Shown piece after piece: positions 10,793 through 47,712 of a DNA stretch of 64,000 bases (position 1 is the first letter of the stretch; each line of letters starts with the position of its first letter). The stretch is from the NCBI RefSeq assembly GCF_057098645.1, contig NZ_CM169472.1. One strand, 5' to 3'. The position numbers and the translations under genes are program-made. The notes under the pieces are model-generated. The model was not told the origin of the DNA and searched no databases. It was given only the letters and a program-made list of their open reading frames with translations.

Positions 10793-11341
10793 ATGACTGT
10801 TCAAACAAGTAAAAATCCGCAGGTCGATATTGCTGAAGATAATGCATTCTTCCCTTCAGAATATTCGCTTAGCCAATATACCAGTCCTGTCTCTGATCTT
10901 GATGGCGTGGACTATCCAAAACCGTATCGCGGTAAACATAAAATTCTGGTGATCGCCGCGGACGAACGTTATTTGCCAACCGATAACGGAAAACTGTTCT
11001 CGACCGGTAACCATCCGATTGAAACGTTGCTGCCGTTGTATCATCTCCATGCTGCAGGTTTCGAATTCGAAGTGGCGACCATTTCCGGTCTGATGACCAA
11101 GTTTGAATACTGGGCTATGCCGCACAAAGATGAAAAAGTAATGCCATTCTTTGAGCAGCATAAATCGTTGTTCCGCAATCCGAAGAAACTCGCGGATGTT
11201 GTCGCCAGCCTCAACGCTGATAGCGAATATGCAGCAATCTTTGTTCCTGGTGGTCATGGCGCACTTATTGGTTTACCTGAAAGCCAGGACGTAGCTGCCG
11301 CTTTACAGTGGGCAATCAAAAATGGGTTTTTTGTTGCCTGA
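10793..11341 (+). pseudogene. hchA: hchA (Hsp31 glyoxalase) 5' fragment, interrupted by prophage integration
   Basis: First ~177 residues match HchA (MTVQTSKNPQVDIAEDNAFFPSEY... AAALQWAIKN), then the frame runs into phage DNA (GFFVA, stop). The missing C-terminus is found at 47701-48018. Confidence 0.85.
11316..11336. other. attL junction (host hchA / phage)
   Basis: hchA reading frame diverges after ...gcaatcaaaaatg; imperfect identity with the right junction (AAATGggTTTTtTGTT versus AAATGaccgTTTTGTT). Confidence 0.5.
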
Positions 11342-11390
11342 AATTTAAGCTGTTTAAAATCATGATGTTAGAAACACTATTTTTTAACGA

Positions 11391-11412
11391 TGGCGACAAA
11401 ATGGCGGCAGCG
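11391..11412. repeat. 22-bp direct repeat, putative integrase arm-type site (copy 1)
   Basis: TGGCGACAAAATGGCGGCAGCG, about 70 bp inside attL; near-identical copy at 47582-47603 inside attR. Confidence 0.4.
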
Positions 11413-11628
11413 TCAAAGAGAGAGCGCCACCTGTCCTGATTTCATTGGATGCGGCTGAACCGGATTTGACTCTTTTGGCGTTGCAATCGAACGAACAAAA
11501 GTTTCATGGGTAACAAAAGTATGGCTGCAGTTAATGTTCTGGCACTGGTTGTAACGCTCTTTGGTCAATGAAGATACCTGAAAACTGCTGCGAGTATGGG
11601 CGGCACTTCCACACAGTGGGCAAATCAT
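11413..11628 (-). CDS. ogr: Ogr-like zinc-finger late transcription activator
   Basis: MICPLCGSAAHTRSS...KERYNQCQNINCSHTF... resembles P2 Ogr (CPLC...C..C zinc finger); located between gene D and att as in P2. Confidence 0.8.
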   Translation of the reverse strand: MICPLCGSAAHTRSSFQVSSLTKERYNQCQNINCSHTFVTHETFVRSIATPKESNPVQPHPMKSGQVALSL

Positions 11629-11721
11629 CATTTTTCGAGTTCTCCCCATTTTTGCTAAATTCACAATAATGATACCGCATTATTCCATTTTGCAAACTTA
11701 AAAGTTCTCCATTGCGAAGAA

Positions 11722-12822
11722 TCATTCCATTTCGAAATCATCAATCCTCACTTCAAGCTCCAGACTGGTCGTAAAACCATTATCCGGGCTTACAGTATGC
11801 GTCAGAGTCGTAATGGTCCATTCCGCATCATCTATCGGCTGTTTAAAGCCACTGACTTTCACTGGCATTTCCGTGTAGAGATCTGCCCGCCCTTCCGCCA
11901 GTTGTAGCGAGAATGACGCAACGCCACGTTGCAGGCGTTCCCACTGCATTTTCGCTGCCCGTTCAGCGTTGCTCCGGTTGGCATAAGTGCGATTAAGTAC
12001 CAGCACGTTTTCATCCGTCCCCACCAGGTAATCGCCCTGCTTCGCTTCCGGCTCTTTCTTCTGCTTCTTAGTCCTGCGCTTACGCTTCACCGTAGTGCTT
12101 TCTTTCTTCGCGGGTTCGCGGGTATGCAACCAGCTGGCAATTACCCCCGTGTAGGCTCCGCGATCTGCCAGGGTAAAGCGGTGACTGTCGCCGTCCTTGC
12201 GTGTGATAGTGATCACCGGCAGTGGTTTACCAGTGGCGCTTTTGCCCTGTCCCTGCCGGATGAATAACAGATTGCCATTTTTCACCGACGCGATGGCACC
12301 GTACTGGCGCGCCAGCCGCATCAGAAAACTGCCGTCACTCTCATTAGTCTGGTCTATATGCTCTACGAGCTTATCCGACAGGTCTTTACCCAGTGCCATC
12401 TTCAGCTTGTGCCGCGAGGCTATTTCCTTCACCACTTCCCCGACGGTGGTCTTATGCCACGATTTTTCACGGCGGGTATTCAGCGTTTCCCGAAAATCAG
12501 CACTTCGCGCCCGGATAGTCAGGCGGTCCGGTGCGCCAGTGTGTTCAATCTCGTCCACCGTGAATGCCCCTTTCGGGAAAAGCGGCTGCCCCTTCCAACC
12601 CAGCGCCAGCGTAACGACCGCACCACGGCGCGGCAGCACGATTTTTCCGTCGGCGTCGTCCAGCTCCAGATCAAGCTGGTCTGCTTCAAAGCCCCGGTTA
12701 TCCGTCAGCGTCAGCCCCATCAGGCGGTTGTCCAGCACTGTGGTGATATCCCTGCCCTCAATACTGATGCTGAATGCGGGAGTTTTGTTGCCTTTGTTAA
12801 GCAGTTCAGAGCTGAAATTCAC
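11722..12822 (-). CDS. Tail protein gpD-like
   Basis: 366-aa ORF in the P2 gene D position, overlapping U stop; recalled similarity to P2 D. Confidence 0.75.
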   Translation of the reverse strand: MNFSSELLNKGNKTPAFSISIEGRDITTVLDNRLMGLTLTDNRGFEADQLDLELDDADGKIVLPRRGAVVTLALGWKGQPLFPKGAFTVDEIEHTGAPDRLTIRARSADFRETLNTRREKSWHKTTVGEVVKEIASRHKLKMALGKDLSDKLVEHIDQTNESDGSFLMRLARQYGAIASVKNGNLLFIRQGQGKSATGKPLPVITITRKDGDSHRFTLADRGAYTGVIASWLHTREPAKKESTTVKRKRRTKKQKKEPEAKQGDYLVGTDENVLVLNRTYANRSNAERAAKMQWERLQRGVASFSLQLAEGRADLYTEMPVKVSGFKQPIDDAEWTITTLTHTVSPDNGFTTSLELEVRIDDFEME

Positions 12823-13304
12823 GACAGCAGCCCTCCCACCGTTTTACTGATATCGCTTAAGACAGATGTTGCCGTGTCCTGAAGATTATTCAGTTGCGCA
12901 CTGAGATCACCGAACATATCGGACAGGGATTCATCCACGCGTTTGAGCGACAGGGTGAACTCAATCCGGCGCGGCATACCGTCGCGGAAAAACTCCGTTT
13001 TAGTCTGATTCAGTCCCTCAATCACATACATGCCGTAAATCGTGCCGCTGCCTTCAATCAGGGGCCATGCTTTCCCCTGTTCTGCCATCTGCTCCAGTGC
13101 CAGCAACGACAGCCTGCCGCCTGTTATCTCCGGCATAAGAACACCGGAAAGCGTCAGCATGTCGTTGTCCGGTCCCAGAAACTGCGTGGACGGACGACGA
13201 TTTACCCGGCTGTTTGCCGCATGTCGCCAGCTGCGTTGATACTGCAGTTCCTGATACGGAACGGTGCGCAGCATAAACACGTACAATCCCAGCACCATCA
13301 TCAT
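12819..13304 (-). CDS. Tail protein gpU-like
   Basis: 161-aa ORF between tape measure and D, with 4-bp overlaps typical of the P2 tail operon. Confidence 0.7.
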   Translation of the reverse strand: MMMVLGLYVFMLRTVPYQELQYQRSWRHAANSRVNRRPSTQFLGPDNDMLTLSGVLMPEITGGRLSLLALEQMAEQGKAWPLIEGSGTIYGMYVIEGLNQTKTEFFRDGMPRRIEFTLSLKRVDESLSDMFGDLSAQLNNLQDTATSVLSDISKTVGGLLS

Positions 13305-17377: not shown

Positions 17378-17386
17378 GTTGTCCCC

Positions 17387-18559: not shown

Positions 18560-18701
18560 AGTGGCGAACCTCCTGATTGGATTAGGCTTCGCCCTATGTT
18601 GAAGTGATTGTGCCTGACAAACAGCTAAGCGCAGTTGTGTCGTTATTCACACAAAATAACGGTATTTGTCCGCTTACAGGAAAAATCAAAATAATGCTGA
18701 C

Positions 18702-19268
18702 TCAGGGCGATTCATTGTTCTCATTCGCCGGAAATTTTCTATAAATGGTAGAAACGCCCACATCAAAAATCAGTGCAATACGCTGTCTTGATTCTCCGGC
18801 CTCGAGTAAACGTCCAATCTGTGCCCACTGTTCGGTAGTCAACTTAGGACGGCGTCCACCTACTCTGCCTTTAGCACGAGCTGCAGCCAGCCCTGCCCTG
18901 GTACGTTCAACTATCAGTTCGCGTTCCATTTCAGCCAGGGCACCCATGACATGAAAAAAGAAACGGCCCATTGGGGTACTGGTATCAATACTGTCAGTCA
19001 GACTTCTGAAATTCACGCCGCGCTGGCGCAACTCTTCTATCAGAGTAACAAGATGCCGCATACTGCGCCCCAACCTGTCCAGCTTCCAGACAACCAGTGT
19101 GTCACCTGCCGATAGTGTCCTGAGCAGTTTTTTAAGCCCCGGTCGGTCGGACTTCGTGCCGCTGATTTTATCCTCAAAAATCAGCTCACATCCTGCACAC
19201 TCCAGCGCGTTACGCTGCAATTCCGTATTCTGGTCATTTGTTGACACGCGGACATAGCCAATAAGCAT
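18702..19268 (-). CDS. Serine site-specific DNA invertase (Hin/Gin/Cin/Pin family)
   Basis: 188-aa ORF MLIGYVRVSTNDQNTELQ... with catalytic Ser region and C-terminal HTH (GVSTIYRKF); adjacent to the invertible tail-fibre segment. Confidence 0.85.
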   Translation of the reverse strand: MLIGYVRVSTNDQNTELQRNALECAGCELIFEDKISGTKSDRPGLKKLLRTLSAGDTLVVWKLDRLGRSMRHLVTLIEELRQRGVNFRSLTDSIDTSTPMGRFFFHVMGALAEMERELIVERTRAGLAAARAKGRVGGRRPKLTTEQWAQIGRLLEAGESRQRIALIFDVGVSTIYRKFPANENNESP

Positions 19269-19323
19269 GATGGATCCCCTGAATAAAAACCGGGGATGAT
19301 GCCAGTTAGCCGTAATCTCTGCA

Positions 19324-19349
19324 TTTTCTTAAACGTTGGTTTGGGAGAA
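19324..19349. repeat. Invertase crossover site (left), gix/hix-like
   Basis: TTTTCTTAAACGTTGGTTTGGGAGAA; about 20 of 26 positions match the inverted partner at 21269-21294. Confidence 0.5.
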
Positions 19350-19790
19350 GCGGCAAAACGAAATGTGGGCAACGGGGAAAACCAAATCCCTGATATGTCT
19401 TTCTGGACGGTTACTGGTGGCAATGGAAATTTTGTGATTCGTCAACCTGACGGACTAATCATTCAGATGGTTACTGTAAGTATAAGCGGTCCAGTGGCGA
19501 TGAATGGAATGACTGATAATGCTTATGCCATTACAGGTTCTAATAAGTCTTATATTGCCACAGCCACATTGCCCTTTGTATTTCCTAATAAGGTGCTGGG
19601 CGTTATCCCTCTGGTATCAACAACAGCTTATGGTGGTGTATCCAGTAATATTACAGGTTCATACGCGACGGCGGTTTGTTCTTTTGCCGCTGTCAGGGGG
19701 AATAATACGATTGTGTTCAAAGTCGACAAACCACTGAATGCAGCCTTTCCTTCAGATACCAGCGTCTCAGCGTTAATCATTGGACGGTAA
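19350..19790 (+). CDS. Alternative tail-fibre C-terminal segment (Hc'), expressed only after inversion
   Basis: ORF begins at the crossover site, lacks an N-terminal domain, and is followed by a tail-fibre assembly gene; mirrors the Mu G-segment S'/U' arrangement. Confidence 0.55.
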   Translation, partial: AAKRNVGNGENQIPDMSFWTVTGGNGNFVIRQPDGLIIQMVTVSISGPVAMNGMTDNAYAITGSNKSYIATATLPFVFPNKVLGVIPLVSTTAYGGVSSNITGSYATAVCSFAAVRGNNTIVFKVDKPLNAAFPSDTSVSALIIGR

Positions 19791-19792
19791 GA

Positions 19793-20236
19793 ATGAACTC
19801 AGTATTCTTTTCACCCGCAAGTAAAAGTTTTTATCTGCAAGAATTGTTTCCAGAATATGAGGATGCGGGAACGCTTCCTGATGATGTTATTGAAATTACC
19901 AGAGAAACATATGAGCAATTTCTTGGGCTGCATCCAGAAGGGAAAGAAATTGGCGCTGACAGTTCAGGACGGCCAATATGGATTAATTCCCCGCCGCCTT
20001 CAAAAGAGGATGAGATGCTGGCGGCTGAAATGAAAAAGATATCTTTGGTTTCAGAAGTCAATACCTACATCAATACCCATCAGTGGCCTGGCAAAGCTGC
20101 TATTGGTCGTCTGAAAGGTTACGAGCTGGAACAATATAATTTATGGCTGGATTATCTGGACGCACTGGAACTGGTTGATACCGCCAGTGCTCCAGATATT
20201 GAATGGCCTACGCCTCCGGTAGTTCAGGCCAGATGA
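19793..20236 (+). CDS. Alternative tail-fibre assembly chaperone (G'-like)
   Basis: 147-aa ORF with the conserved Tfa C-terminus ...LWLDYLDALELVDTASAPDIEWPTPP. Confidence 0.75.
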   Translation: MNSVFFSPASKSFYLQELFPEYEDAGTLPDDVIEITRETYEQFLGLHPEGKEIGADSSGRPIWINSPPPSKEDEMLAAEMKKISLVSEVNTYINTHQWPGKAAIGRLKGYELEQYNLWLDYLDALELVDTASAPDIEWPTPPVVQAR

Positions 20237-20813
20237 CATCCGGCGCGGTGCTGGTATCTGTTGCAGTCACCGCGTCAATGTAATCCAGCACAGCGTTAAG
20301 CCGGGTTGTTTCTGCCTGCGTCAGCTTCCGCCCGGCCTGCAATTTCAGCTGAATCAGACTAATGGAAGCCATAGCAGCATCAATCAGTGACTGGCGCCGT
20401 ACTTCTGCCGCGTCTACTGCGGCGTTATGCTGTGCCTCAGTATCGGTCACCCATTTCTCACCATCCCATTTATCGTATGACGTTAACGGGGCGATAGTGG
20501 TTGTATTTTCAGGGTAATCACCCGGAACTGTGATTTCTTTTGATTTTCCTGTTTCGGTGCTATAGACGATTTCACCGCGATGGTCTGGCACATATTCCCA
20601 TGAGTTAAAATCTGCAGAACGGCAAATTGCATAACCAGCTTTATATGAGCCAGGAGCATCTAAACAGGAACATGCCGGGATACCGACACCCACAGCAAGA
20701 TATTCAGTTGATGTGGAAATATATTCCCGTGTTTCACCATCATAATTATAAACGGTAATGTCTCCGGCCTTTGTGGCGATGAGTTCATTATTTAATACAG
20801 CTTTACTTATCAT
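20208..20813 (-). CDS. Tail-fibre assembly chaperone (gpG-like)
   Basis: 201-aa ORF with Tfa C-terminal motif ...LNAVLDYIDAVTATDTSTAPDVIWPELP; downstream of H. Confidence 0.75.
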   Translation of the reverse strand: MISKAVLNNELIATKAGDITVYNYDGETREYISTSTEYLAVGVGIPACSCLDAPGSYKAGYAICRSADFNSWEYVPDHRGEIVYSTETGKSKEITVPGDYPENTTTIAPLTSYDKWDGEKWVTDTEAQHNAAVDAAEVRRQSLIDAAMASISLIQLKLQAGRKLTQAETTRLNAVLDYIDAVTATDTSTAPDVIWPELPEA

Positions 20814-22330
20814 GCAGCCCTCACAATATAATTAAAGGCGATGTTACGGGAGCGGGTTTCAGATGCTGTGCGAACTGAGCGAGATGCGTCGAATGTCCAG
20901 TTATAAGCGCCATAACCCTCAATAATTTCGGCTTCCTTTAGACCTGTAGATAATACTTGCCCATGTTGACTAAATGGCCCTGAACTAAGTACGTCTCTAA
21001 AAAGCTGGGTACGCCCAAAAGAACCAACAATATTCTGAATTGCATCATTCTGTGCAGATAATAAGTTACGACCAGAGTCAATCCCGCGCCCATCATCCCA
21101 GCCACGAATAAATTCACCGCGTAAATCTGGTAATTTTAATGTTGGGTAAGCCTTTGCCAGATTTGGGTACTTTTCAGAAGAAAATGCTGCTCCGTTACAT
21201 TTTAGCCAGCCCGTTGGTGGTGTTTCTAAGGGCCACGGAACGGGCACACCAACAGGCAGTGCAGAGCCTTCCCCCAAACCAAGGTATGCGAGAAGACCAG
21301 CTACATCCTTTCCACTCAAATGAGTCAGCGTCTCATCCAGCGGTTGTTTACCTGCCAGCGCATTAAGCATTGTCGTGGCAAAGTTCGGGTCATTCCCCAG
21401 CGCTGCCGCCAGTTCGTTCAGTGTATCCAGTGCCGCAGGTGCAGAACCCACCATTGCCGCAATCGCCGATTTCACAAATGCCGTGGTGGCAATCTGTGTA
21501 TTGTTGACCGACTGTGCCGCAGTAGGTGCGGTTGGCGTTCCGGTGAGTGCCGGACTCGACAGCGGCGCTTTCAGTGCCAGCGCATTGTTAATGGTGGTAC
21601 TGAATTTCGGATCATTGTTAATGGCTGCGGCTATTTCTTTCAGCGTGTCCAGCGTGGCTGGCGCACCATTAATAAGAGCCGTCAGAGCCGCCTGAACAAA
21701 CGCGGTGGTCGCAATCTGCGTGGTGTTATTCCCTGCGGCTGGCGTTGGCGCTTTGGGTGTCCCGGTAAACGTCGGACTTTCTTTGGGTGCATACTGTGAA
21801 TGCGGGTCCGGTGCGGCAAGATGTTTTGCCATCTGATCATCCGCGTACACCTTCAGCTCCAGTGCCTTGTCATCCACATACTTGCGGGTTGCCAGCACTA
21901 CGGCAGGGTCGATTTTCAGGGTGATATTGTCCGTGCTGCTGGTAATCAGCACCATGCGCACGGTCTGAGTGCGCCCGCTACCTTCAGCCAGTTGCGGCTT
22001 ATAGCTTTCCGGGCAGTTGCCCACGGCAATCAATGCCCCGGACTCATCAAACAAGCCCACTTCACGTATCCACCAACCGCCCTCGTTTTCAGGGATCACC
22101 TGTTCGGCAATAATCTGGCTGCTGTTCTGCAGGTCGATATAGAGCATATTCAGCGCAGCCCGGCGTTTCTCATTTACCAGTGCAGTCTGCTTTGAGTCTG
22201 GCGTTGGCAATACTCCGCCGCCATCGCCGACCGCCATATGGGTAATTTTTAGCGGCACACCGAGCGCGGCGGCGCTGGCAAGTTTCGCCGCGCCAATATC
22301 CGTCAGCAGGGTATAAAATTTTGTGCTCAT
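20810..22330 (-). CDS. Tail fibre protein (gpH-like); C-terminal ~160 aa lie inside the invertible segment
   Basis: 506-aa ORF with repeated tail-fibre-type motifs (TTQIATTAFV... twice); a crossover site lies inside it. Confidence 0.8.
   Translation of the reverse strand: MSTKFYTLLTDIGAAKLASAAALGVPLKITHMAVGDGGGVLPTPDSKQTALVNEKRRAALNMLYIDLQNSSQIIAEQVIPENEGGWWIREVGLFDESGALIAVGNCPESYKPQLAEGSGRTQTVRMVLITSSTDNITLKIDPAVVLATRKYVDDKALELKVYADDQMAKHLAAPDPHSQYAPKESPTFTGTPKAPTPAAGNNTTQIATTAFVQAALTALINGAPATLDTLKEIAAAINNDPKFSTTINNALALKAPLSSPALTGTPTAPTAAQSVNNTQIATTAFVKSAIAAMVGSAPAALDTLNELAAALGNDPNFATTMLNALAGKQPLDETLTHLSGKDVAGLLAYLGLGEGSALPVGVPVPWPLETPPTGWLKCNGAAFSSEKYPNLAKAYPTLKLPDLRGEFIRGWDDGRGIDSGRNLLSAQNDAIQNIVGSFGRTQLFRDVLSSGPFSQHGQVLSTGLKEAEIIEGYGAYNWTFDASRSVRTASETRSRNIAFNYIVRAA
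21269..21294. repeat. Invertase crossover site (right), inside gene H
   Basis: TTCCCCCAAACCAAGGTATGCGAGAA, inverted relative to the site at 19324-19349; central AAACCAAGGT resembles hix/gix. Confidence 0.5.
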
Positions 22331-35075: not shown

Positions 35076-35130
35076 TGGAGCACCTCAAAAACACCATCAT
35101 ACACTAAATCAGTAAGTTGGCAGCATCACC

Positions 35131-36032: not shown

Positions 36033-36710
36033 CTAGAACGTGACAGCCTTGTCAAAGCCAGAAATAATTGTATAAGAAATAGACGAGTTATCAGCCTTGT
36101 TCACTTTGAACTTGGCACCTTTGTAAGCGATAACGTCACTTCCCTTAGAATCTACAGAAAAATCTGTTGTAAATGCTGCACGAGCCATATCGTTTGCAAA
36201 TTCACGATAGGTGAACTTCATTACACCGCCTGCATTTCCATTGTATTCGATAGTCTTAACCAATGAGTTACTAACTCGACACAGCCCATCAGGAACACGT
36301 TTGATAGAAATTTCTGATGCAGTATAAGAAGTACCATTTGGCGGTGATATCTCATTTTTTGCAGCATCGTAACTAACATAATCAACATAGTTACCGATTT
36401 GCCCATAGAGATTTTTTAACGCAACAGCTTGAGGGTTATGATAATTGCGGTAAATTCCATTCCCCTCACTGCAATATGTACCAGCAGCGATAGAAGACAA
36501 TGCACCATTAGCCGCACCAAGTTCTAGTACGTCCGTTTTAAATCCAGTAGCAGATGTGATAATGGGATCGCCCATGTAGGCGGTAGCACTTTGCCCAATA
36601 GCAGGCTTCACCACTTCAATAGCAGTGATATTTCGGTTAGAAGCATGTGGCACGCAACCAGTTAGGATTACAGCAAGAGATATTGGTAACGCTACATTAT
36701 TAATTTTCAT
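36033..36710 (-). CDS. Lipoprotein of unknown function (prophage cargo next to cos)
   Basis: Signal peptide with lipobox MKINNVALPISLAVILTGC and a Gly/Ser/Thr-rich mature domain; AT-rich. Confidence 0.7.
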   Translation of the reverse strand: MKINNVALPISLAVILTGCVPHASNRNITAIEVVKPAIGQSATAYMGDPIITSATGFKTDVLELGAANGALSSIAAGTYCSEGNGIYRNYHNPQAVALKNLYGQIGNYVDYVSYDAAKNEISPPNGTSYTASEISIKRVPDGLCRVSNSLVKTIEYNGNAGGVMKFTYREFANDMARAAFTTDFSVDSKGSDVIAYKGAKFKVNKADNSSISYTIISGFDKAVTF

Positions 36711-36823
36711 TTTTAGCCTATTATTCTTTTCTTGACAAAAAACAAGGCGATATCCGATTGACATCGCCTCTCACTCATATGTAACCCTTTTTGATTAGTA
36801 AAAACAAGCGTCTATTGACAAAA

Positions 36824-37410: not shown

Positions 37411-39416
37411 TTAATACAGGTTCCGCCACTTATCATCTTCCTGCAAACGCTGGTTCCGATAGAAGATACGCAGGCCTGCTCCTGACGGAATACTGCCGCC
37501 GCGAAGGAGTAAATCGACCTCTTTCTCGCTGCCATCAAATCCTCTGGATTTCAGTTCATAGACGAGCTGCTGTCGTTGATGGTCTGTAATTCGCTGTTTG
37601 TAGTCTCTACGCCGTTTCGGTTTCACCAGACGTAACCTTGCAGCCAGTTCCCGGCGCTCCTTTTTGTTCATACTGTGCAGGTAATCGTGCAACTCCTTGT
37701 CATCCATGCGGGTAAAGTCCGTTCTGGGGTCCCCATCAGCTGATTTATCTTTCTCCTGTTGGTTCAAATTTTCAGCAAGGGGACAGTTATTGCCACGAGT
37801 CCAAGGGGCGCAAGCGCCCTGGTCGGCTGCCGCCTCCTGAACGTCAACGGCCTTACGAACCATTTTCCACTTCACTGCATGAGTACAAATCTTGCCCTCT
37901 GCAATGGGTGACCAGATGCCATAAATACGAATACCGTGATCGCCATAGGCGGTCGGCTCTTCGTTAATTTCATAAGCTGTTCTGATAAGGTGATATTTGC
38001 GGGGAACCAGTACGCCGCCCTGCTTCATAATGTAGGTGGCAAAACAACCAGCATCAGCAGCAGCCAGAATGGCATCAAGGCGCGGGTTATCCAGTACCGG
38101 CGCACCTGCTTTTTTGTCACCCTGTTGCCTTGCCGCCTGACCAGCCAGCAATCGCAATTCACGGTACGCCTGACGCCCCGGAATACCAAAGAAGCGAAAT
38201 TGCTGAACACGATGCAGAGACGCCCAGGCATTAACGTATTCAGCGTTATCACGCAGGGATTTACCCGTTTCCTTGCTGATTTCGCCAGCCAGACCACGCC
38301 CATCAATGTTCTTACTGATGTATTTCGCGATGTAGCTTGTCGGCGTTCCTTTTCGCGGGTTAATCAGCTCAGACTTAAAGCGCGGCCCCGTGTTATTGCC
38401 CAGCTCCTCACGGTCTTCACGGATAGCAAACTTACGCAACAATGCAGTAATGGCGCGGCGGTCTTTTTTGCGCATGAAACACAACAGGTGCCAGTGAACT
38501 GTGCCGTCATGATGCGGCTCAGCCACCCGCACGCCATACCAGCGCAACCCGGCTTTGTGCATCGCCTTACGAAATGCAGCAAACATACCGACCAGATAAT
38601 CGCTGCTTTGTCTTACCGTCGCATTTGTCCATGTCGGGTTGGGTCTGCCGTTATTGAGCGTGGAATGGAAACGTGACGGACAGGTAATGGTGTAGAAAAC
38701 GGCGCAGTCACCGCGCATTTCCGCGATAAGCTCCAGACCTTTAACACAGGCCATCATCTCATTGCGACGATGCGCCGGGTTGCTGCTGCTGGCGTTTACC
38801 ACATCTTCCATATCCAGCGCGTCTCCGTCTTCGTTCACCAGTTCATGAGAACGGAAAAACTCCAGTGACTTACGGCGCTGCTCACGTTTATGCATCACGG
38901 CTTCATAGCTGACATAGGGAGATGCTTTTTTGCTGACCAGGCAGACAGCACGCAACTGCTCTTCCCGCCATTCGCAACGCATCTTCCACAATTTCCGATA
39001 CCACCAGTCGGCGCACAGCATACGCGCCAGCGAACCCGGAATGAGTTCATAGGGCACGGGTTTACGGCGGTTTCTTTTCCGACGGAGTTGCTCAAACGCA
39101 GGCGGGATGACATCCAGACGCAGGGTTTCCGCTGCCACCTTTTCCCATGTCTTGCGGATTTCTTCTGGCTTAACGTCATCGGTGGCATACAAATCACCAC
39201 AAGCTGCATCAAGGCACATACTCATATGCGCAGCTACCAAGGTGGACAGGCGTTTCACCTGATCCTGACTCATTTCAGGCAGGATCAGCAGGCCGTCCAG
39301 CCCTTCATGGCTTGCCATAAAGCGAAAAGATGCAGATAGCTGACTGTCGCGTACATGCTCCAGTCGTTCCAGACATGGCTTAATCGTCTCACGTAAATAG
39401 CGGGAATAAGCCTTTG
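37411..39416 (-). pseudogene. Replication initiation endonuclease gene A, 3' portion (split by IS21-family insertion)
   Basis: 635-aa ORF with rolling-circle initiator motif ([11 protein letters not shown]); frame stays open upstream of the annotated Met as far as the IS boundary. Confidence 0.8.
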
Positions 39417-39515
39417 TGCGTATTCCGCTCTATTCGATCACGGATTGGCATCGAAGTCCGATCAGCGATTCGCATCCATTCGATCAACCGGGAACTTAAC
39501 TTTTTCTACCGCTTT

Positions 39516-40271
39516 TTAACGCGTTTTTTCGCTGCTTTCCACTACCGGGGGATTTTTCCTCAGTGACTCTCCCTGAAGGACCACTCGGTGTGAGTTATGT
39601 ACCAGTCTGTCCAGGATGGCATCTGCTGTTGTTGGGTTCTCCATCAGACCATGCCATTTATCTACCGGGAACTGGCTTACCACTATCGTGCTGCTTTGTC
39701 CGTAACGATCCTCTATGAGCTCCAGAAGGTCATTACACTGGGCGTTACTTAACTGTTCCAGCCCCAGATCGTCCAGGATTAGAACCTGTATTTTTTGCAA
39801 CTGTTTCAGATATTTCAGCCAGCTGCCATCAACACGTCCCTGAGCCAGTTGTTCCAGTAATCGCCCGGTTCTACAGTACCGGACGCTGTGTTTCTGTCGA
39901 CATGCCTGTTCGCCCAGCGCATTGGCTATCCAGCTCTTGCCACATCCTGTCGGACCGGTTATCAGCAGGTTTTTCCTGTGGGTTATGTAGTGGCCGTTCA
40001 GCAGTTCTCTCATCTGTTCAGCCCGCAGACCTCTTGAGGCCGGATAGCGCAGCCCTTCCGGTGTTGCCTGGTATTTCAGGCCGGCATTTTTTCTCAACCG
40101 TGCCACACGGCTGTTTTCCCTGCTCAGAAGCTCGTCATCAACCAGCAGCGTCAGCCTTTCCTCGAACGACAGTTCGTCGTAGGTCTGAGGCGTTTCCCGC
40201 TGCCGTATCAGGCTCCCGGCCATCGCCGGGAGTTTCAGTTGGGTCAGTTTGTTTAACAGGTTATCACTCAT
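39516..40271 (-). CDS. istB: IS21-family helper ATPase IstB
   Basis: Walker A (GPTGCGKS) and Walker B (LILDDLG) motifs; start chosen at MSDNLLNKL. Confidence 0.8.
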   Translation of the reverse strand: MSDNLLNKLTQLKLPAMAGSLIRQRETPQTYDELSFEERLTLLVDDELLSRENSRVARLRKNAGLKYQATPEGLRYPASRGLRAEQMRELLNGHYITHRKNLLITGPTGCGKSWIANALGEQACRQKHSVRYCRTGRLLEQLAQGRVDGSWLKYLKQLQKIQVLILDDLGLEQLSNAQCNDLLELIEDRYGQSSTIVVSQFPVDKWHGLMENPTTADAILDRLVHNSHRVVLQGESLRKNPPVVESSEKTR

Positions 40272-40287
40272 ACTGTTGTTCCTTCTG

Positions 40288-41823
40288 TCAGTGGTAGTAG
40301 CCCGGACCACGCAGGTTTTCATGCTCTGAAGCATATGCCGGATGTTGTTCGCCCTGGCGGGATAATGGAAGCTCCAGGTTCTCCCGATGGTGACGCAGCA
40401 GATTGTCGATAAAGCGTCTGTCAGGGGCGTTATAGTGCAGGGCAACGTAACAGGCCTTTTCCAGCCGTTCCGGGCCGTATTTTTTCTGAAGTGCCAGCAG
40501 CCCCAGAACTGCACGATAAGCCAGTTCCGGATGGGGTTTTGCCTTCAGCATGGATTCAACCACCCGGCCTGTGGACGGGCCCGTACGTTTTCCCTGCTCG
40601 ATCAGGCGTTCCGGTGTCCATGTCCCGTGCTGCCGGTGGCGCTCTGGCATGTGAAGCGGATTGGTTGTGTGTTTATATTCATGTGTGCTGCGCGGATGTT
40701 GCGCCACACACTGCCCCTTGTGCCAGAGCTGTACCACCGACTGCCCCGCCTTCAGTGACAGACGCTGACCGACCAGTTCGTGTGGAACGGAGTACCAGTG
40801 ACGGGCATATTCAACGTGGTAGTCAGGGCCAACCTTCACAGCTTTGTATTCCGTGTATTCATAAGGTGCCAGAGGCAGCGGAGAGAGTGCTGGCGCATCC
40901 AGTATGCGGAAGCGTTCTGCACGGGTTTGATTGCCGTACCCCTTCATTGGCCGGTTATTCATGTCTGTCAGTAACTCCCTAAGGCGCGCATTCAGCGCCC
41001 TGAGCGTGTGGAAGGTTTCATTACGGATGCGGGCAAGAAGCCATCGTTCAACGATGAGGACGCCGTTTTCTGCTTTTGGTTTATCTTTAGGTTTGCGTGG
41101 TCGGGCCGGGATGATAACCGTGCCATAGTGCTCAGCCAGTGCCTGATAACTGTCGTTGATGACAGGCTCATATCGATCGGCCTTTTTCACTGCGCTTCTG
41201 AGGTTATCGGGGATGAGCAGCTTCGGTACGCCGCCCAGGAAGGTCAGGCAACGGCTGTGGGCATTTAACCATGACATCATGTCCTGACCTTCGCACGCTT
41301 CAACGTAGGTATAGTTGGACGCCCCCATTACGGCCACGAAGATTGCCACGCGGCGTATCTCACCGGTGTCCGGATTAATAACAGGAACCGTAGGACCACA
41401 GAAGTCGATAAAAAGCTTTTCGCCGGCACGATGCTCCTGGCGCATGGAGAGACGTCGCGTTTTTTTCCACTCCCGGTAGCAACGGCAGAAGTGCGAGTAT
41501 CCCATCGCTTTGTTACCCGCCTGTGCCTTGTATTCCATCCACAACAGTTGCCGCGTCACACCTGGTTTTCTCATTTCCGTATCGAAGTACAACATGTCAG
41601 GCATTACAAGCTCTGATGCAAAGGTGTCTTTGGGCGGAAAAATGAGTTTCTCCAGCGTGTCATGGGATATATCAGCAGGTAATGGCCATGACAGAGAAGA
41701 GGCTTTGAAGCGGGCAAGAACCTCAAAAACGGTTGAGGCGCTGATGTGTAACGTCAGTCCGATACAACGGTTAGTCAGCTTCTTGTCGAACTTGAGCTGA
41801 AGGATCTTAAAACAGGTTTCCAT
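40288..41823 (-). CDS. istA: IS21-family transposase IstA
   Basis: About 512-aa product with integrase-type catalytic core; start chosen at METCFKILQL. Confidence 0.8.
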   Translation of the reverse strand: METCFKILQLKFDKKLTNRCIGLTLHISASTVFEVLARFKASSLSWPLPADISHDTLEKLIFPPKDTFASELVMPDMLYFDTEMRKPGVTRQLLWMEYKAQAGNKAMGYSHFCRCYREWKKTRRLSMRQEHRAGEKLFIDFCGPTVPVINPDTGEIRRVAIFVAVMGASNYTYVEACEGQDMMSWLNAHSRCLTFLGGVPKLLIPDNLRSAVKKADRYEPVINDSYQALAEHYGTVIIPARPRKPKDKPKAENGVLIVERWLLARIRNETFHTLRALNARLRELLTDMNNRPMKGYGNQTRAERFRILDAPALSPLPLAPYEYTEYKAVKVGPDYHVEYARHWYSVPHELVGQRLSLKAGQSVVQLWHKGQCVAQHPRSTHEYKHTTNPLHMPERHRQHGTWTPERLIEQGKRTGPSTGRVVESMLKAKPHPELAYRAVLGLLALQKKYGPERLEKACYVALHYNAPDRRFIDNLLRHHRENLELPLSRQGEQHPAYASEHENLRGPGYYH

Positions 41824-42055
41824 AGTGCTCCTGGATTTTCTCTTTCTGGACATTGACGTCTCCACTGGTTTAAACACGGCAATGGAGACTGTGGTGAAAA
41901 GAGTTAATTCCCGGAGTGACTGGCAGGATGCCAATCAATGATCGGAAGCATGCCAAATCGTGATCGATTGTGATGCCAAACTGTGATCGGAGATGGATGC
42001 CAAATCATGATCGATTCGAATGCCAAACTGCGATCGATTCAGATGCCATTTTGCA

Positions 42056-42470
42056 CCTTTGGCCTGCCCAGGCTGCTGAAGTATTCAATACGTTGCATCA
42101 GCGGCTTGCTGATATGGGAAGGCTGGGCGTTGACGTCCGCCAGAATGACCATGTCTGAATTAAAACGCTGCTGCTCATGCGCCAGCTTTGCCCGGCTAAT
42201 GAGCTTATCCTGCTCCATTTCGCGCTGGACAGGATCACGTGATTCATTAAAGAAATAACGCTCCCAGACCTGATCACTCAGTGCCTCGCGGCGCAACTGT
42301 TCCTGCTCGTTATCGGCAGCGTACAGAGTGATCAGGTTTGAAAGCGTAGAAACCGGCGCAACTTCCGCCGGGTCCAGATAAGGGTTAATGGCCTTTTTCG
42401 GGCTGTTCCATGAGAACGCTGCGGCAGCCTCGTTAAAGCCGCAGCAGTTGTTCATATCGGCATGACTCAT
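42056..42470 (-). pseudogene. Replication gene A, 5' portion (upstream of IS insertion)
   Basis: ORF is in frame with 37411-39416 once the IS and one copy of the target duplication are removed; its last 8 codons in the track come from the IS end. Confidence 0.6.
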
Positions 42471-43324
42471 GCACGTACTCCGTACACGGCAGAACTATCC
42501 ACGCCACGCGAATAATCAAATCCCATCCAGCAGCGCGGCCCGGAAACAGCAATGATTTCTGTTGCTGATTTACCCTCGCCAGCTGCCACACCGATGCTGC
42601 GTTTTACCTTGATATAGTGGTGAGTAAAATTGCGATACAGCGAACGGATCAGGGATGTGTCACTGTTAGAAACAATGACCGGATGTCCTTCTGATGACCG
42701 ATGTTCAAGAACGGATGCCAGGTGATACTGGTCATCTTCAGTGAAACCATCAGTGTGATAGCCGGAAAACGTACCGTCATACGGCGGATCGCAATACACC
42801 ACATCTCCCGCCTTCAACATCGCCAGCGTTTCATCAAAGCTGGCGCAGATAAACGTTGCTCGCTGGGCCTTTTCTGCAAATGCGCGAATTTCTTTTTCAG
42901 GGAAATACGGATTTTTATAATTACCGTAGGGAATGTTGAAATGCCCGCTCTTGTTATAGCGACATAAACCACGGTAACCGTGACGATTGAGATACAGGAA
43001 ATATACCGCTTTCATGAAATCAGTAATTTCAGTTGAGTAATTAAACTCCTGCCTTATGTTGTAATAAGCCACCTCCCTGTTTGCGATCTCAAATAAAACT
43101 CTGGCGCGAGATATAAACGATTCACAATCAGCGGCAACCTTTTTATAGAGGTTGATTAAATCAGGATTAATATCCGCAACCAGATAGCTGGGATAATCCG
43201 TCTCCATCATCACAGCACAGGACCCCGCGAAAGGTTCAACCAGTCGCGGGCCAGCAGGAAGATGTTTTTTCAGTTCGGACATAATGGCGGTTTTATTTCC
43301 CGCCCATTTCAGGATGGTGCTCAT
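42467..43324 (-). CDS. Dam-family DNA N6-adenine methyltransferase (phage-encoded orphan)
   Basis: [11 protein letters not shown]... N-terminus, SAM-binding FAGS motif and catalytic DPPY motif; stop overlaps the gene A start. Confidence 0.75.
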
Positions 43325-43548
43325 ACAACACCTCCGTTGTAATGTTTGCCTTTCAGCTCTGCGATTTCCTGACAGGTAATGCAAAGCTGCACACCCGGAA
43401 TGGCGCGGCGGCGTGCTGGCGGAATTGGCGCTTCACATTCAATACAAAGCACGCGAGACACGCCCGGTGTTTTGGCACGGGCAGCACGGATATGGCGCTG
43501 GCGTTCTTCTTCAACGCGCTGCTGTACGAGATCCATTGCATCAGCCAT
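43321..43548 (-). CDS. TraR/DksA-type C4 zinc-finger protein
   Basis: 75-aa ORF with CIECEAPIPPARRRAIPGVQLCITCQ. Confidence 0.6.
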   Translation of the reverse strand: MADAMDLVQQRVEEERQRHIRAARAKTPGVSRVLCIECEAPIPPARRRAIPGVQLCITCQEIAELKGKHYNGGVV

Positions 43549-43787
43549 TAGTGGATCTCCTGCGCTTCGCTCTGGATTGCTTCAGCAGTCACACGCAGCA
43601 GTTCTGCTGCTTCGACGTGGTTTAGCTGGCGGGATGTGATATGACACGCCAGGCTATCAAGGCGAGCTGCCATTGCTTCAGCCCTTGCCCGGCGTTCTTC
43701 CAGACGAGCCTCTGTCAGTAAAATATTAAGCCCTGCGTCATCCGGTCCGGTTTTAGTCGTGAGGATTTCAATATTACGCATAATCAA
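43548..43787 (-). CDS. Hypothetical early-region protein
   Basis: 79-aa ORF in the B-A interval; no recognisable motif. Confidence 0.4.
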   Translation of the reverse strand: MIMRNIEILTTKTGPDDAGLNILLTEARLEERRARAEAMAARLDSLACHITSRQLNHVEAAELLRVTAEAIQSEAQEIH

Positions 43788-43848
43788 TTCTCCTGAATTT
43801 AGATAAAGGGATGCCCGGCGGGTTTACGCCATTAATTTCATTAGTTGG

Positions 43849-44190
43849 TTAATTCGGCATGGTTAGCCGTCTGGGAAATAAGCTCACCACTGCACGAAAA
43901 TGATTCATTGCTTTAATCAACTCCCGCTTTTCGTCAGTGGTCAGCTCATTAATGCTGGTGCTATGACGTTCAGCTGGAATTTTTGCCATAAAGAATATGG
44001 CAGCCAGTGCCCTTTTATTTTGTTCATTATTGATATCCCATGGATCACGCATATCTTTAATAAACCGCTCAAGCTCTGACTCAATATTCAGGCCAAAAAC
44101 TTTCGCCCTTAATTCCGCAATGTGATTAAGTCCATTCAGGCGTTCACCGGGGCTTAATGGAACAGTCGCCGCAGTGCCTTCAATAGCCAT
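43849..44190 (-). CDS. Hypothetical early-region protein
   Basis: 113-aa ORF in the B-A interval. Confidence 0.4.
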   Translation of the reverse strand: MAIEGTAATVPLSPGERLNGLNHIAELRAKVFGLNIESELERFIKDMRDPWDINNEQNKRALAAIFFMAKIPAERHSTSINELTTDEKRELIKAMNHFRAVVSLFPRRLTMPN

Positions 44191-44384
44191 TTGTTCCCCC
44201 GTTTTTTCGTAGATAGTTCTGCCAGCAATTCATCTTGTGAACGGCACGGATGCCAGCGTTTACCATCCTCACCCATGATCCAGCCGTGACCGTAGTGCAT
44301 TGCCGGGCTTTGTTTTACCAGCAGCGATGCAAATGATGGTTCTTTCGTCAGCATAAGCACCTCACAGCAAACCGAATGAAGCAC
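44154..44384 (-). CDS. Hypothetical small protein
   Basis: 76-aa ORF overlapping both neighbours; coding status uncertain. Confidence 0.3.
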   Translation of the reverse strand: MLHSVCCEVLMLTKEPSFASLLVKQSPAMHYGHGWIMGEDGKRWHPCRSQDELLAELSTKKRGNKWLLKALRRLFH

Positions 44385-44877
44385 CGAGGCCAGTCACGGT
44401 ATCAACTGCACTCGCCATCGCAGGATTAGCCTGTAAACGGGCCTGCAATGAAACAGCCGCCAGCGCCATCAGTCGTGTTACAGAGTTAATGCTGCTGATA
44501 GCATCACGACGACCGGCACAGGTTTTTACATCGCCAGATACCGCACCTGCAGCAACACGCCCGATCTCTGCGGTTGCACTCATGACGTAATGTGGCAGTT
44601 TCTCTTTTGCCACCTCATTAATCGGTACACATGGCAGACAATGAATCTGTGCCAGAAAACCATCTACCAGCGTTGAATCTTCAGTCAGATCGGTAAGCAG
44701 CCAGATTTCTGGTGCGGTTAATAAATGAGGTTGAGCTGGGTTCAGCTTGTTCCGCAGAATCTGCACATTCATGCCAGCACGTTCTGCCAGTTGCACCAGG
44801 TTGTGGCGCAATGCGAATGCACGACAGGCTTCATCAAAATGTGGATGTTTGGAAACTTGGTAATCAAACATGGTCAA
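44362..44877 (-). CDS. Replication protein gpB-like
   Basis: 171-aa ORF downstream of cox, upstream of A, as in P2/186. Confidence 0.55.
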
Positions 44878-44903
44878 TGCCTCTGATGTATCTCAGAATC
44901 GAA

Positions 44904-45125
44904 CTAATTAAGGTTTAGATTGCATTCTGAAAGCGCATCAACGGTCATTGCTGCTATGTTGATCATCACTTTTTCGCGTTTTTTATCTTTGCGCAGACGG
45001 TGACGGATAAGGCGTCCATCAGCCAACATGTCATTGATGGTATCGATGGATAGCCCTGTCAGCTCGCTATAGCGTTCAATAGTCACATGAGGCGTGGTAA
45101 GAGTGATTGAAATGTTAGGTCTCAT
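44904..45125 (-). CDS. Cox/Apl-like excisionase and switch regulator
   Basis: 73-aa HTH protein divergent from the repressor gene (...[22 protein letters not shown]...). Confidence 0.55.
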
Positions 45126-45244: not shown

Positions 45245-45820
45245 GTGACCATGAATTTGGAGAAAGGCGGACGAGGCGCTATAGAGCGCATGGTAGAAGC
45301 TTATGGATTCAAGACTCGACAGGCGTTGTGCGATCATTTAGGAATCTCTAAAAGTACACTCGCCACACGCTACATGCGTGACTCATTCCCAGCAGAATGG
45401 GTAATCCAGTGCGCCCTTGAAACAGGCACCTCGCTTAATTGGCTCACAACCGGGCATGGTTCAAAGCAAACTTCAGGTAATACAAATACTATGGAAGTTG
45501 CTAAATATGTATTATCTGATGGGGCCTTGTGTGAAGACGGTTTTTATATTTTCGATAGAGAATTTCTACCGTCGGCATTCAAGAATCTTTTTGTAATCAC
45601 AGATAATAATTCTGAATTTATTTGTGATAAGGAATTTGATGATATACGTGATGGTAAATGGGTAATAAGTATTGATGGCGAAATAACGATCCGTGACATT
45701 ACTCGTTTACCCGGTGGAAGAATCTTCGTCGAGGGTGGAAACAGAGCCTTCGAATGCAAGATAGAAGACATTGAAATAATTGGTAAAATTATAAGCTTAA
45801 CAGTCAAGTATGTTAAATAG
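45245..45820 (+). CDS. 186-type CI immunity repressor
   Basis: 191-aa ORF; N-terminus ...MVEAYGFKTRQALCDHLGISKSTLATRYMRD...CALETGTSLNWLTTGHG resembles 186 CI; followed by int on the same strand. Confidence 0.7.
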   Translation: MTMNLEKGGRGAIERMVEAYGFKTRQALCDHLGISKSTLATRYMRDSFPAEWVIQCALETGTSLNWLTTGHGSKQTSGNTNTMEVAKYVLSDGALCEDGFYIFDREFLPSAFKNLFVITDNNSEFICDKEFDDIRDGKWVISIDGEITIRDITRLPGGRIFVEGGNRAFECKIEDIEIIGKIISLTVKYVK

Positions 45821-45835: not shown

Positions 45836-46027
45836 ATGCTTGGTAAGGTATTTTTTGTGGTTTTGTCATGTTCTTTGTTATTAAACCCACTAGCTACCTA
45901 TGCTAGAAATTATCCCTGCTCAGGGAAAAAGGGAGGTGTTTCTCACTGTACCTCTGATGGCAAATTCGTTTGCAATGATGGAACTATTAGTAAATCCAAA
46001 AAAATCTGTACTAAAAACTCACGATAA
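45836..46027 (+). CDS. Small secreted cysteine-rich peptide (lysogenic-operon cargo)
   Basis: 63-aa ORF with signal peptide ([19 protein letters not shown]) and about 40-aa mature part with 5 Cys and many Lys/Gly; RBS ggagg upstream. Confidence 0.45.
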
Positions 46028-46215: not shown

Positions 46216-47247
46216 ATGGCTGTACGAAAACTCACCACAGGAAAATGGCTTTGCGAATGTTACCCCGCCGGACGTAGTGGGCGTCGTGTGCGTAAACAAT
46301 TCGCCACCAAAGGCGAAGCACTGGCTTTTGAGCGTCACACGATGGAAGAAACCGAAGCAAAGCCCTGGCTGGGTGAATCAGTGGATCGTCGAACACTGAA
46401 AGACGTGGTTGAGCTATGGTTCAAACTACATGGTAAATCACTGACTGCTGGGCAGCATGTCTATGACAAATTGCTGCTGATGGTTGACGCTCTGGGCAAT
46501 CCCCTTGCAACTGATCTCACATCTAAAATGTTTGCCCACTATCGAGATAAACGCCTGACAGGTGAGATCTACTTCAGCGAGAAATGGAAGAAAGGAGCAA
46601 GCCCGGTCACCATTAACCTGGAGCAAAGCTATCTAAGTAGTGTTTTTAGCGAACTATCCCGCCTGGGCGAATGGTCGTATCCGAACCCACTGGAGAACAT
46701 GCGAAAATTCACCATCGCAGAAAAAGAGATGGCATGGCTTACCCATGAGCAGATTGTTGAATTGCTGGCTGATTGCAAACGTCAGGACCCAATTCTGGCA
46801 CTGGTAGTTAAGATATGCTTAAGCACAGGCGCACGTTGGCGTGAAGCCGTAAATCTTACCCGCTCACAGGTGACCAAATACCGAATTACCTTTGTAAGAA
46901 CGAAGGGGAAGAAAAACAGAAGCATCCCTATCAGTAAAGAGCTTTACGAAGAGATCATGGCGCTTGATGGGTTCAATTTCTTTACAGACTGCTATTTTCA
47001 ATTTTTATCCGTGATGGAAAAAACGTCTATCGTGCTCCCTCGCGGTCAACTGACACACGTTCTGCGCCATACGTTTGCGGCGCACTTCATGATGTCGGGT
47101 GGAAATATCCTGGCCTTACAAAAAATTCTCGGGCATCACGATATAAAAATGACTATGCGTTACGCACATCTGGCACCGGATCACCTGGAAACTGCATTAC
47201 GGTTTAATCCGCTGGCAACACTACCAACATCAATAGCAAGTTTTTGA
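46216..47247 (+). CDS. int: Tyrosine integrase (P2/186 family)
   Basis: 343-aa product from MAVRKLTTGKW...; C-terminal catalytic region (HVLRHTFA...MRYAHL) with conserved R/H/Y residues. Confidence 0.85.
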   Translation: MAVRKLTTGKWLCECYPAGRSGRRVRKQFATKGEALAFERHTMEETEAKPWLGESVDRRTLKDVVELWFKLHGKSLTAGQHVYDKLLLMVDALGNPLATDLTSKMFAHYRDKRLTGEIYFSEKWKKGASPVTINLEQSYLSSVFSELSRLGEWSYPNPLENMRKFTIAEKEMAWLTHEQIVELLADCKRQDPILALVVKICLSTGARWREAVNLTRSQVTKYRITFVRTKGKKNRSIPISKELYEEIMALDGFNFFTDCYFQFLSVMEKTSIVLPRGQLTHVLRHTFAAHFMMSGGNILALQKILGHHDIKMTMRYAHLAPDHLETALRFNPLATLPTSIASF

Positions 47248-47305
47248 AAATGCGTATTTTGCCCTGTTGAGCTAATATTCTTTTTTTTCACATGGAGCAC
47301 TATCA

Positions 47306-47575
47306 ATGAATAAGTTTCAGCATCAGGGAGCGGAATTGCGCAACAGAGCCAAAGAATTGGCTTTATCCGTACTTAAAACTCACCCAGATGCCCAAAAAAA
47401 CGGCAACGGCGTTAAGCAAGCTGAGGTATTTCGTCTAAGCGGCCTCGATTGGGGAGAAAAACGGAAAGCAACAAGTTCGAACCAACAATATTGGGTTGTT
47501 GCACTATTGCGTGAACTAGAAGAGGAGGGGTTAGTCGAACAGATTGAAGATAGAGGCCCCTGGCGTCTAAGGTAA
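47306..47575 (+). CDS. Hypothetical protein between int and attR, possible winged-helix regulator
   Basis: 89-aa ORF; C-terminal YWVVALLRELEEEGLVEQIEDRGPWRL resembles a winged-helix recognition element. Confidence 0.35.
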   Translation: MNKFQHQGAELRNRAKELALSVLKTHPDAQKNGNGVKQAEVFRLSGLDWGEKRKATSSNQQYWVVALLRELEEEGLVEQIEDRGPWRLR

Positions 47576-47581
47576 AACAAG

Positions 47582-47603
47582 TGGCGACAAAGTGGCGGCA
47601 GCG
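47582..47603. repeat. 22-bp direct repeat, putative integrase arm-type site (copy 2)
   Basis: TGGCGACAAAGTGGCGGCAGCG, 21 of 22 identical to 11391-11412. Confidence 0.4.
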
Positions 47604-47691
47604 GTTGGCATTACCCCGTAATAACCACCACTGACCACCAACCCAACTTATTGTTTTTACTCTAACTTATTGTTTTCATTAACCCATTTAC

Positions 47692-47712
47692 ATAAATGAC
47701 CGTTTTGTTATC
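47692..47712. other. attR junction (phage / host hchA)
   Basis: hchA frame resumes exactly here (..aaatgac cgt ttt gtt atc = N D R F V I). Confidence 0.5.

Follow-up and report, generated by a model that had tools for sequence, protein, structure and literature searches.

The window analysed here, a stretch of 64,000 nucleotides (nt) of contig NZ_CM169472.1 (NCBI RefSeq assembly GCF_057098645.1), carries an insert of 36,374 bp at positions 11325-47698 that splits hchA, the gene for Hsp31. The insert is, judged by its sequence, a 186-type, P2-like temperate prophage, and it very probably arose through integrase (Int)-mediated insertion of such a phage into a secondary attachment site within hchA. 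The same integrase has its primary site at the 3' end of rybB. The phage type, rybB as a target, arm sites of the 186 type and integration at secondary sites are all of kinds already known, whereas hchA has not previously been reported as a site; literature searches found no paper naming it as a site of a P2-like phage.

Sequence comparisons showed that the match to intact hchA, which starts at 10793, ends at 11324 in 5,393 of 5,426 complete E. coli genomes. Joining 10793-11324 to 47699-48018 restores a sequence that agrees at 852 of 852 nt with the uninterrupted hchA of E. coli O145 RM9872 and encodes a full-length HchA of 283 amino acids (aa). Thus, the insertion of 36,374 bp is a clean one. 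The bases AAATG occur at both junctions (11320-11324 and 47694-47698), and otherwise no host base was lost or duplicated. The two parts of the gene and the two hybrid attachment sites, attL and attR, are as follows.

10793-11324, plus strand: 5' part of hchA, codons 1-177 and the first base of codon 178.
11320-11345, plus strand: attL core, in which host AAATG is joined to phage-type GGTTTTTTGTTGCCTGAAATT, with the crossover in or beside the ATG at 11322-11324.
47681-47713, plus strand: attR core, in which phage AACCCATTTACATAAATG is joined to host-type ACCGTTTTGTTATCT and the phage terminator hairpin is disrupted.
47699-48018, plus strand: 3' part of hchA, from the remainder of codon 178 to the stop, holding Cys185 and His186.

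The cut in codon 178 lies upstream of the catalytic Cys185 and His186, and neither fragment has a complete catalytic domain, so that Hsp31 function is inferred to be lost. The truncated open reading frame (ORF) reads on to 11341 and encodes a 182-aa fusion of HchA(1-177) to GFFVA. A first-pass annotation of the window, made from its letters without database searches, had proposed a P2/186-like prophage inserted in hchA and inactivating it, and had suggested alignment to an uninterrupted locus; the O145 RM9872 allele is identical across the junction, and both proposals are supported. Its frame break at 11324 is confirmed, whereas the frame resumes at 47699, 2 nt from the 47701 that it gave.

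The primary site was identified from relatives of the prophage. The same int module (99.7% identical DNA) adjoins rcdA in E. coli HS and APEC O18; rcdA and ybjL flank the HS prophage as a whole, and Rfam places RybB immediately outside its ogr end. The phage site attP reads CATAA-ATGGGTTTTTTGTT-GCCTGAAATTTA and the bacterial site attB at rybB of K-12 reads GGTTG-ATGGGTTTTTTGTT-ATCTAAAACTTA, and the two share a perfect 14-bp core, ATGGGTTTTTTGTT, which includes the last bases of the rybB terminator and is followed by 12 bp with 3-4 mismatches (26 bp in all). In the phage, the attP core also forms the 3' half of the int-operon terminator hairpin. The phage arm on the int side (P arm) adjoins rcdA in 1,123 of the 5,426 complete genomes, about a fifth, a number close to the total copies of this int region detected (the int-region search returned 6,519 places in 5,393 records). 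For E. coli W, B and Crooks, PMC3032704 (Table 2) lists rybB as a site of P2-type prophages, the "Rybb*" prophages. The short, imperfect core at hchA had been taken as typical of P2-family attP/attB pairs. This does not hold, as the identical Int has a perfect 14-bp core at its primary site; the core match at hchA is poor because hchA is a rare secondary (pseudo-attB) site. At the rybB attR itself, just right of the 14-bp core, APEC O18 has phage-type GCCTG and HS has host-type ATCTA, a difference that may reflect either an attB polymorphism or conversion by earlier cycles of integration and excision.

The hchA site reads CAAAA-ATG-ACCG-TTTTGTT-ATCT, in which ATG and TTTTGTT(ATCT) are common to the rybB/attP core and the four bases between them are mismatched (hchA TCAAAA-ATGACCG-TTTTGT aligned with attP ACATAA-ATGGGTT-TTTTGT). 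To the right of the ATG, attL has phage-type GGTT and attR has host-type ACCG; the crossover therefore lies in or beside the ATG and not in TTTTGTT. The latter, present in attP, rybB and hchA, was considered as the overlap and excluded, since the phage-type bases of attL and the host-type bases of attR lie to its left. Temperate phages such as lambda, and P2 at locH, locII and locIII, use secondary sites rarely, with partial core identity and a crossover inside the core. Correspondingly, Int and attP are identical at the two sites compared here, the overlap matches at 3 of 7 positions in hchA against 7 of 7 in rybB, and usage is 0 against 1,123 of 5,426 genomes. By descent (Int and attP) the prophage is thus a member of the rybB group in a non-canonical location.

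Neither the attL nor the attR junction at hchA was found in any of the 5,426 complete E. coli genomes, and the junction was not found in IMG/VR; in the JGI metagenomes and 100k species-representative genomes, where only attL was searched, the attL side was not found. However, the exact 182-aa HchA'-GFFVA fusion protein is encoded on ~20-36 public draft contigs (NCBI, ENA and Logan assemblies), so that occupancy of hchA elsewhere, which the first-pass annotation had proposed looking for, is absent from the complete genomes and present in drafts. The one fusion contig compared (GCA_032490195.1) is 99.985% identical to the window, and the fusion contigs that were read share its gene neighbourhood. 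These identities point to a probable single event carried by one clone. A 50-bp hchA remnant of strain PSS-16 (H30) that ends at the same base was rejected as an IS1-mediated deletion in which the end of the match is trivial.

Further off-target events involve the same Int (at least 98% identical to the window Int). A search of IMG/VR with the core on the ogr side (P' side) gave 120 matches, among them 113 attL at rybB, 4 intact attP and 1 joined to a porin gene, for which the predicted attR was then found on the same contig. The porin gene is yedS-like (9128-10201 in the window) and lies directly upstream of hchA, which is intact on the IMG/VR contig; the insertion corresponds to about window position 9213, between AEIYNKD and G. 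The yedS junction also occurs in two complete E. coli genomes, and the prophage inserted there is ~97% identical. In the ST131 strain 4224 (NZ_CP103592.1), ompF is interrupted at the position homologous to the yedS site by a prophage whose Int is 98% identical, with both junctions read; that genome has three ogr/P'-arm-like places. A scan built to exclude rybB and attP gave one more event (IMGVR_UViG_2703718839_000004, stretch 8004-8388), in which the P' side of attP is joined to lysC, the Rz1-like o-spanin gene of a lambdoid prophage, and no event in the metagenomes and species-representative genomes. Here a P2-like phage has integrated in the lysis cassette of another prophage. All five attL junctions (hchA, two at yedS, ompF and prophage lysC) lie directly after an ATG, and in all 3 events with both junctions known the bases to the right of the ATG are phage-type in attL and host-type in attR.

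The yedS and hchA sites are only 2.1 kb apart. A local hop from one to the other was rejected because of the ~3% divergence of both the flanks and the prophages; the two events arose independently, in different host lineages. The proximity has a chance of ~10^-3 for uniformly placed sites, a post-hoc value from very few events, and a regional hotspot for off-target integration by the rybB-type Int in this neighbourhood is a doubtful proposition. If it were true, chromosomal context (local DNA structure, nucleoid proteins or position) would help to pick pseudo-attB sites beyond their sequence.

The integrase and the repeats presumed to bind it lie at the prophage ends.

11391-11412, plus strand: 22-bp repeat (22-mer) of the P' arm, TGGCGACAAAATGGCGGCAGCG, two tandem half-sites, reverse complement TGCCGCCATTT / TGTCGCCATCG.
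46216-47247, plus strand: tyrosine integrase, 343 aa (Pfam Int_N and Phage_integrase).
47306-47575, plus strand: orf89, 89 codons, between int and the P-arm 22-mer and co-oriented with cI-int.
47582-47603, plus strand: 22-mer of the P arm, TGGCGACAAAGTGGCGGCAGCG, two tandem half-sites, reverse complement TGCCGCCACTT / TGTCGCCACTT.

Int agrees at 343 of 343 aa with its counterpart in the E. coli HS prophage and is 55% identical to that of phage 186, and in alignment with the latter it retains the GARW, HVLRHT and MRYAH catalytic motifs (R...HxxR...Y). It is of the heterobivalent type, with a catalytic domain and an N-terminal arm-binding domain. The 22-mers are each other's sole matches in the window at up to 3 mismatches (100 shuffles gave an expectation of 0). 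Each consists of two TGGCGRCA half-repeats spaced by 11 bp, and both are in direct orientation, 66 bp (P') and 95 bp (P) inside the junctions. Direct 22-bp repeats inside both ends had thus been noticed correctly at first pass, at distances given as 70-90 bp. The intact attP of Klebsiella phage KP12 has the order 22-mer, ~95 bp, core, ~65 bp, 22-mer. The arm repeats divide P2-like phages into those with tgTGGaCa (P2 type) and those with tgccGCCActt (186 type) (Nilsson et al., PMC3448106), and the minus-strand half-sites TGCCGCCACTT, TGTCGCCACTT, TGCCGCCATTT and TGTCGCCATCG fit the 186 type and not the P2 type. The GenBank record of phage 186 gives predicted Int arm sites YAYCGCCAYTY, 3 + 2, flanking attP, and its sequence has tandem RTGGCGR repeats spaced by 11 bp in direct orientation in both arms. 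The agreement with the published consensus and with the layout of phage 186 supports the earlier reading of the 22-mers as predicted arm-type sites, here of the 186-type Int. The GCCAC motifs resembling arm sites that occur downstream in hchA were regarded as chance occurrences. Between the P-arm 22-mer and the core lie two exact 13-bp direct repeats, AACTTATTGTTTT (47645-47657 and 47664-47676, 19 bp apart), at the position that the IHF and Apl sites occupy in phage 186. Searches of Pfam, PHROGs, PADLOC, NCBIfam and PDB sequences gave no match to orf89. In E. coli this ORF is widespread (a cluster of 106 members, more than 1,000 contigs), and it is missing from KP12; as a counterpart of Orf69 of phage 186 it was ruled out, having no similarity to it.

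On either side of ATGGGTT, attP has the halves of an imperfect inverted repeat, ACATAA ... TTTTGT (5/6 positions). These 7 bp are the int-proximal part of the core shared with rybB, and the phage 186 record puts the predicted crossover at the equivalent place. Together with the junctions directly after ATG, this suggests a putative Int core of ACATAA / ATGGGTT / TTTTGT, in which strand exchange would begin at the overlap's left edge. The sites were scored with the half-site consensus ACAWAA and the overlap ATGGGTT; a half-site match of at least 5/6 has a chance of ~0.008 per site at uniform base composition.

rybB: B half-site 2/6, overlap 7/7, B' half-site 6/6.
hchA: B half-site 5/6, overlap 3/7, B' half-site 6/6.
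ompF: B half-site 5/6, overlap 4/7, B' half-site 3/6.
yedS: B half-site 4-5/6, overlap 4/7, B' half-site 4/6.
Prophage lysC: B half-site 5/6 (left half-site only).

In the proposed mechanism, the N-terminal domain of Int would dock on the tandem TGGCGRCA repeats in each arm of attP, and Int would bind the two well-matched core half-sites at hchA. The first pair of strands would be exchanged immediately 5' of the invariant ATG, at its boundary with the B half-site. The second exchange, 7 bp rightward, would be blocked by the mismatched overlap, and the Holliday intermediate would be resolved or replicated with the crossover fixed at the ATG.

The main rival, an unlikely variant of this model, keeps the Int-mediated secondary-site event and puts the overlap on the left side of the junction (ATAAATG). 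The secondary sites do fit attP better leftward (AAAAATG or AAAGATG against ATAAATG, 5-6/7) than rightward (3-4/7). However, the heavily used rybB matches ATAAATG at 4/7 and ATGGGTT at 7/7, ATGGGTT is the segment flanked by the best inverted repeat, and the predicted crossover of phage 186 likewise lies in the int-proximal 7 bp of the shared core. It is very improbable that hchA is instead the genuine primary attB of a variant phage with a changed Int specificity, for which a short core would be normal. P2-family phages do use non-tRNA sites, some within genes, and some of their inferred cores are short or imperfect (PMC3448106); moreover, the hchA junction recurs on public contigs. Against this, the Int protein and the arms and core of attP are the same as those of the rybB-resident HS prophage, none of the complete genomes has the hchA junction whereas 1,123 have the P arm at rybB, and the near-identity of the compared fusion contig points to a single event. 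Integrase-independent illegitimate recombination at the 5-bp AAATG microhomology, or an assembly chimera, which the 5 bp of exact sharing at the crossover and the assembled nature of the window might suggest, is scarcely credible, given that the prophage ends match the attP crossover used at rybB to the base in the permutation of an Int-integrated genome, the same ATG marks the break in four further off-target events of this Int, the yedS attR was predicted before it was found, independent assemblies from three sources contain the exact fusion, and the hchA flanks rejoin perfectly.

Several points weigh against Int-mediated insertion into a secondary site as set out here. Counting 30-nt matches to attP/attB fails to single out hchA among AT-rich sequence, so that the choice of hchA as target is not fully explained, and hchA is not claimed to be the best pseudo-site in the genome. 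The cleavage positions, the 7-bp overlap and the half-sites are inferred from symmetry, from analogy with the predicted crossover of phage 186 and from the five natural junctions, and the left half-site of rybB matches at only 2/6, which fits if the perfect overlap and right half-site compensate. The loss of Hsp31 and the poor excision discussed below are both read from sequence. Secondary-site integration is classically triggered when the primary site is occupied or absent; the rybB locus lies outside the 64-kb window.

The phage hairpin AACCCATTTAcaTAAATGGGTTTTTT, which serves both as terminator of the int operon and as part of the attP core, has a folding energy of -9.4 kcal/mol in attP compared with -1.2 in attR of the window. 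As the terminator is lost in attR, read-through into the 3' fragment of hchA is possible. The hybrid sites have unequal overlaps (ATGGGTT in attL and ATGACCG in attR), and excision is therefore expected to be inefficient. Poor excision is likewise expected of the hybrid sites with unequal overlaps that arise from secondary-site events of lambda and P2. Together with the interruption of the replication gene A by an insertion sequence (IS) of the IS21 family, the unequal overlaps would leave the prophage effectively fixed in place.

The phage DNA without IS elements comes to 32,968 bp. Its nearest relative is the E. coli HS prophage, with 99.1-99.95% nt identity outside three segments (18686-21866, IS1 and IS21), and the closest phage records, at ~96%, are Klebsiella phages KP12 and 4LV2017 and Escherichia phages vB_EcoM-813R9 and 500465-1. 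The P2-type set and order of structural and lysis genes (Q-P / O-N-M-L ... sheath-tube-T-U-D-ogr) is present, ~96% identical to records classified in Peduoviridae, and Pfam Ogr_Delta, Phage_GPD, GpU and tape measure were matched on a sister contig. The 186-type regulatory switch, CI (Phage_CI_repr) with Apl/Cox and CII, is also present. The remaining features of the prophage are listed below.

11413-11631, minus strand: ogr/B-type zinc-finger late-gene activator (PF04606; HS annotation).
11722-33552: P2-type late region, with D, U, tape measure, E/E', tube, sheath, tail fibre and invertase, baseplate, lysis and head genes; 99.1-99.3% identical to the annotated HS prophage except at 18686-21866, and ~96% to KP12 and 4LV2017.
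18686-21866: tail-fibre/invertase block, different from the HS prophage, with tail-fibre assembly genes oppositely oriented.
18702-19268: Gin/Hin-type DNA invertase (phrog_125).
30761-32527, plus strand: terminase P, in the late region.
32524-33552, plus strand: portal Q, in the late region.
33580-35747, minus strand: cargo gene (463 aa in E. coli HS; phrog_34659) at the P2 "old/tin" position, split by IS1.
34363-35130, minus strand: IS1, 768 bp, with InsB ORF 34378-34881 and an 8-9-bp target duplication, (C)TCTTTAAG.
37411-42470, minus strand: replication initiator gene A (Pfam Phage_GPA, E=1e-127), interrupted after about codon 138.
39417-42055, minus strand: ISSso4-like IS21-family element, 2,639 bp, with istA 40288-41934, istB 39516-40514 and a 6-bp duplication, CCTTTG.
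42467-45125, minus strand: early lytic operon, with apl/cox, cII, fil, DUF5347, DUF2732, a TraR/DksA zinc finger and Dam methylase.
44362-44871, minus strand: cII, in the early operon.
44904-45125, minus strand: apl/cox-like gene, in the early operon (phrog_575 is cited for the operon).
45245-45820, plus strand: 186-type CI repressor (Pfam Phage_CI_repr and Phage_CI_C).
45836-46027, plus strand: small YdcA-family ORF, secreted or lipoprotein-like, 63 aa (phrog_6000, NF007463).

The difference of the tail-fibre block from HS suggests a possible swap of a host-range cassette. The gap between cI and int, which holds the YdcA-family ORF here, holds a "chromosome segregation ATPase" in KP12 and 813R9 and a KAP P-loop NTPase in ST131 4224. 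The IS21-family element is identical over 2,639 bp (100%) to annotated ISSso4-family copies. The rolling-circle initiator A is present and not intact, and the prophage is accordingly predicted to be defective: with gene A broken by IS21, it should be unable to replicate, given the known role of A in P2 and 186. The first-pass annotation recognized the prophage and missed this defective state and the two IS insertions. Both insertions are proposed to be later than phage integration in the favoured account. In PADLOC the cargo genes gave only a sub-threshold JetC-like match, to the 463-aa gene, and this match was rejected. A lipoprotein-like gene of 225-243 aa (36033-36764, phrog_1353) neighbours the cargo gene split by IS1.

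Both flanks in the window closely match E. coli O145 RM9872 (99.96% and 99.86% identity), and nleF and nleH lie within them. These type III secretion system effector genes, downstream of the prophage (55575-57034; 57764-60009), indicate an attaching-and-effacing E. coli background. Collinearity with O145 RM9872 stops at 57733, the start of IS3-family elements; an ALIL frameshift pseudoknot lies at 59612-59728. In the left flank, Rfam places the small RNA genes dsrA (305-391) and rseX (8727-8816) in a normal, K-12-like context.

For annotation, hchA in this genome is a pseudogene split by a prophage, and the prophage is an IS-damaged copy of a common rybB phage rather than a phage of new site specificity. 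Occasionally the rybB-type Int disrupts chromosomal genes, among them the one for the major porin, ompF. The five natural junctions provide a model, open to testing, of the core and of the order of strand exchange in a 186-type Int that is widespread and unstudied.

Compared with known systems, the prophage most closely resembles the rybB-integrated P2-type prophages of HS and of E. coli W, B and Crooks, with 99.1-99.95% nt identity to HS, the identical Int, and the same attP arms, core and gene order. It differs from them in its location in hchA, its tail-fibre/invertase block, the IS1 in the cargo gene and the ISSso4-like IS21 element in A. KP12, 4LV2017, vB_EcoM-813R9 and 500465-1 show ~96% identity to it in their structural and early regions; the intact attP of KP12 agrees in its core and its 22-mers, and vB_EcoM-813R9 is recorded beside rcdA, that is, at rybB. 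However, the four have other cargo between cI and int and do not have orf89, and the C-terminus of KP12 Int overlaps the P-arm 22-mer. Coliphage 186 (Peduoviridae, Eganvirus) shares the layout B/ogr - arm sites - core - arm sites - small ORF - int - cI, the CI/Apl/CII switch with a DinI/Tum-like gene, and the tandem RTGGCGR arm repeats spaced by 11 bp. In contrast to the rybB terminator and perfect 14-bp core used by the phage described here, the target of 186 is the 3' end of tRNA-Ile with a 36-bp core; 186 has 3+2 arm sites compared with 2+2, and the small ORFs adjacent to attP are unrelated. Unlike the secondary sites of lambda and P2, sites of the type found in the window are specific to the rybB-type Int.

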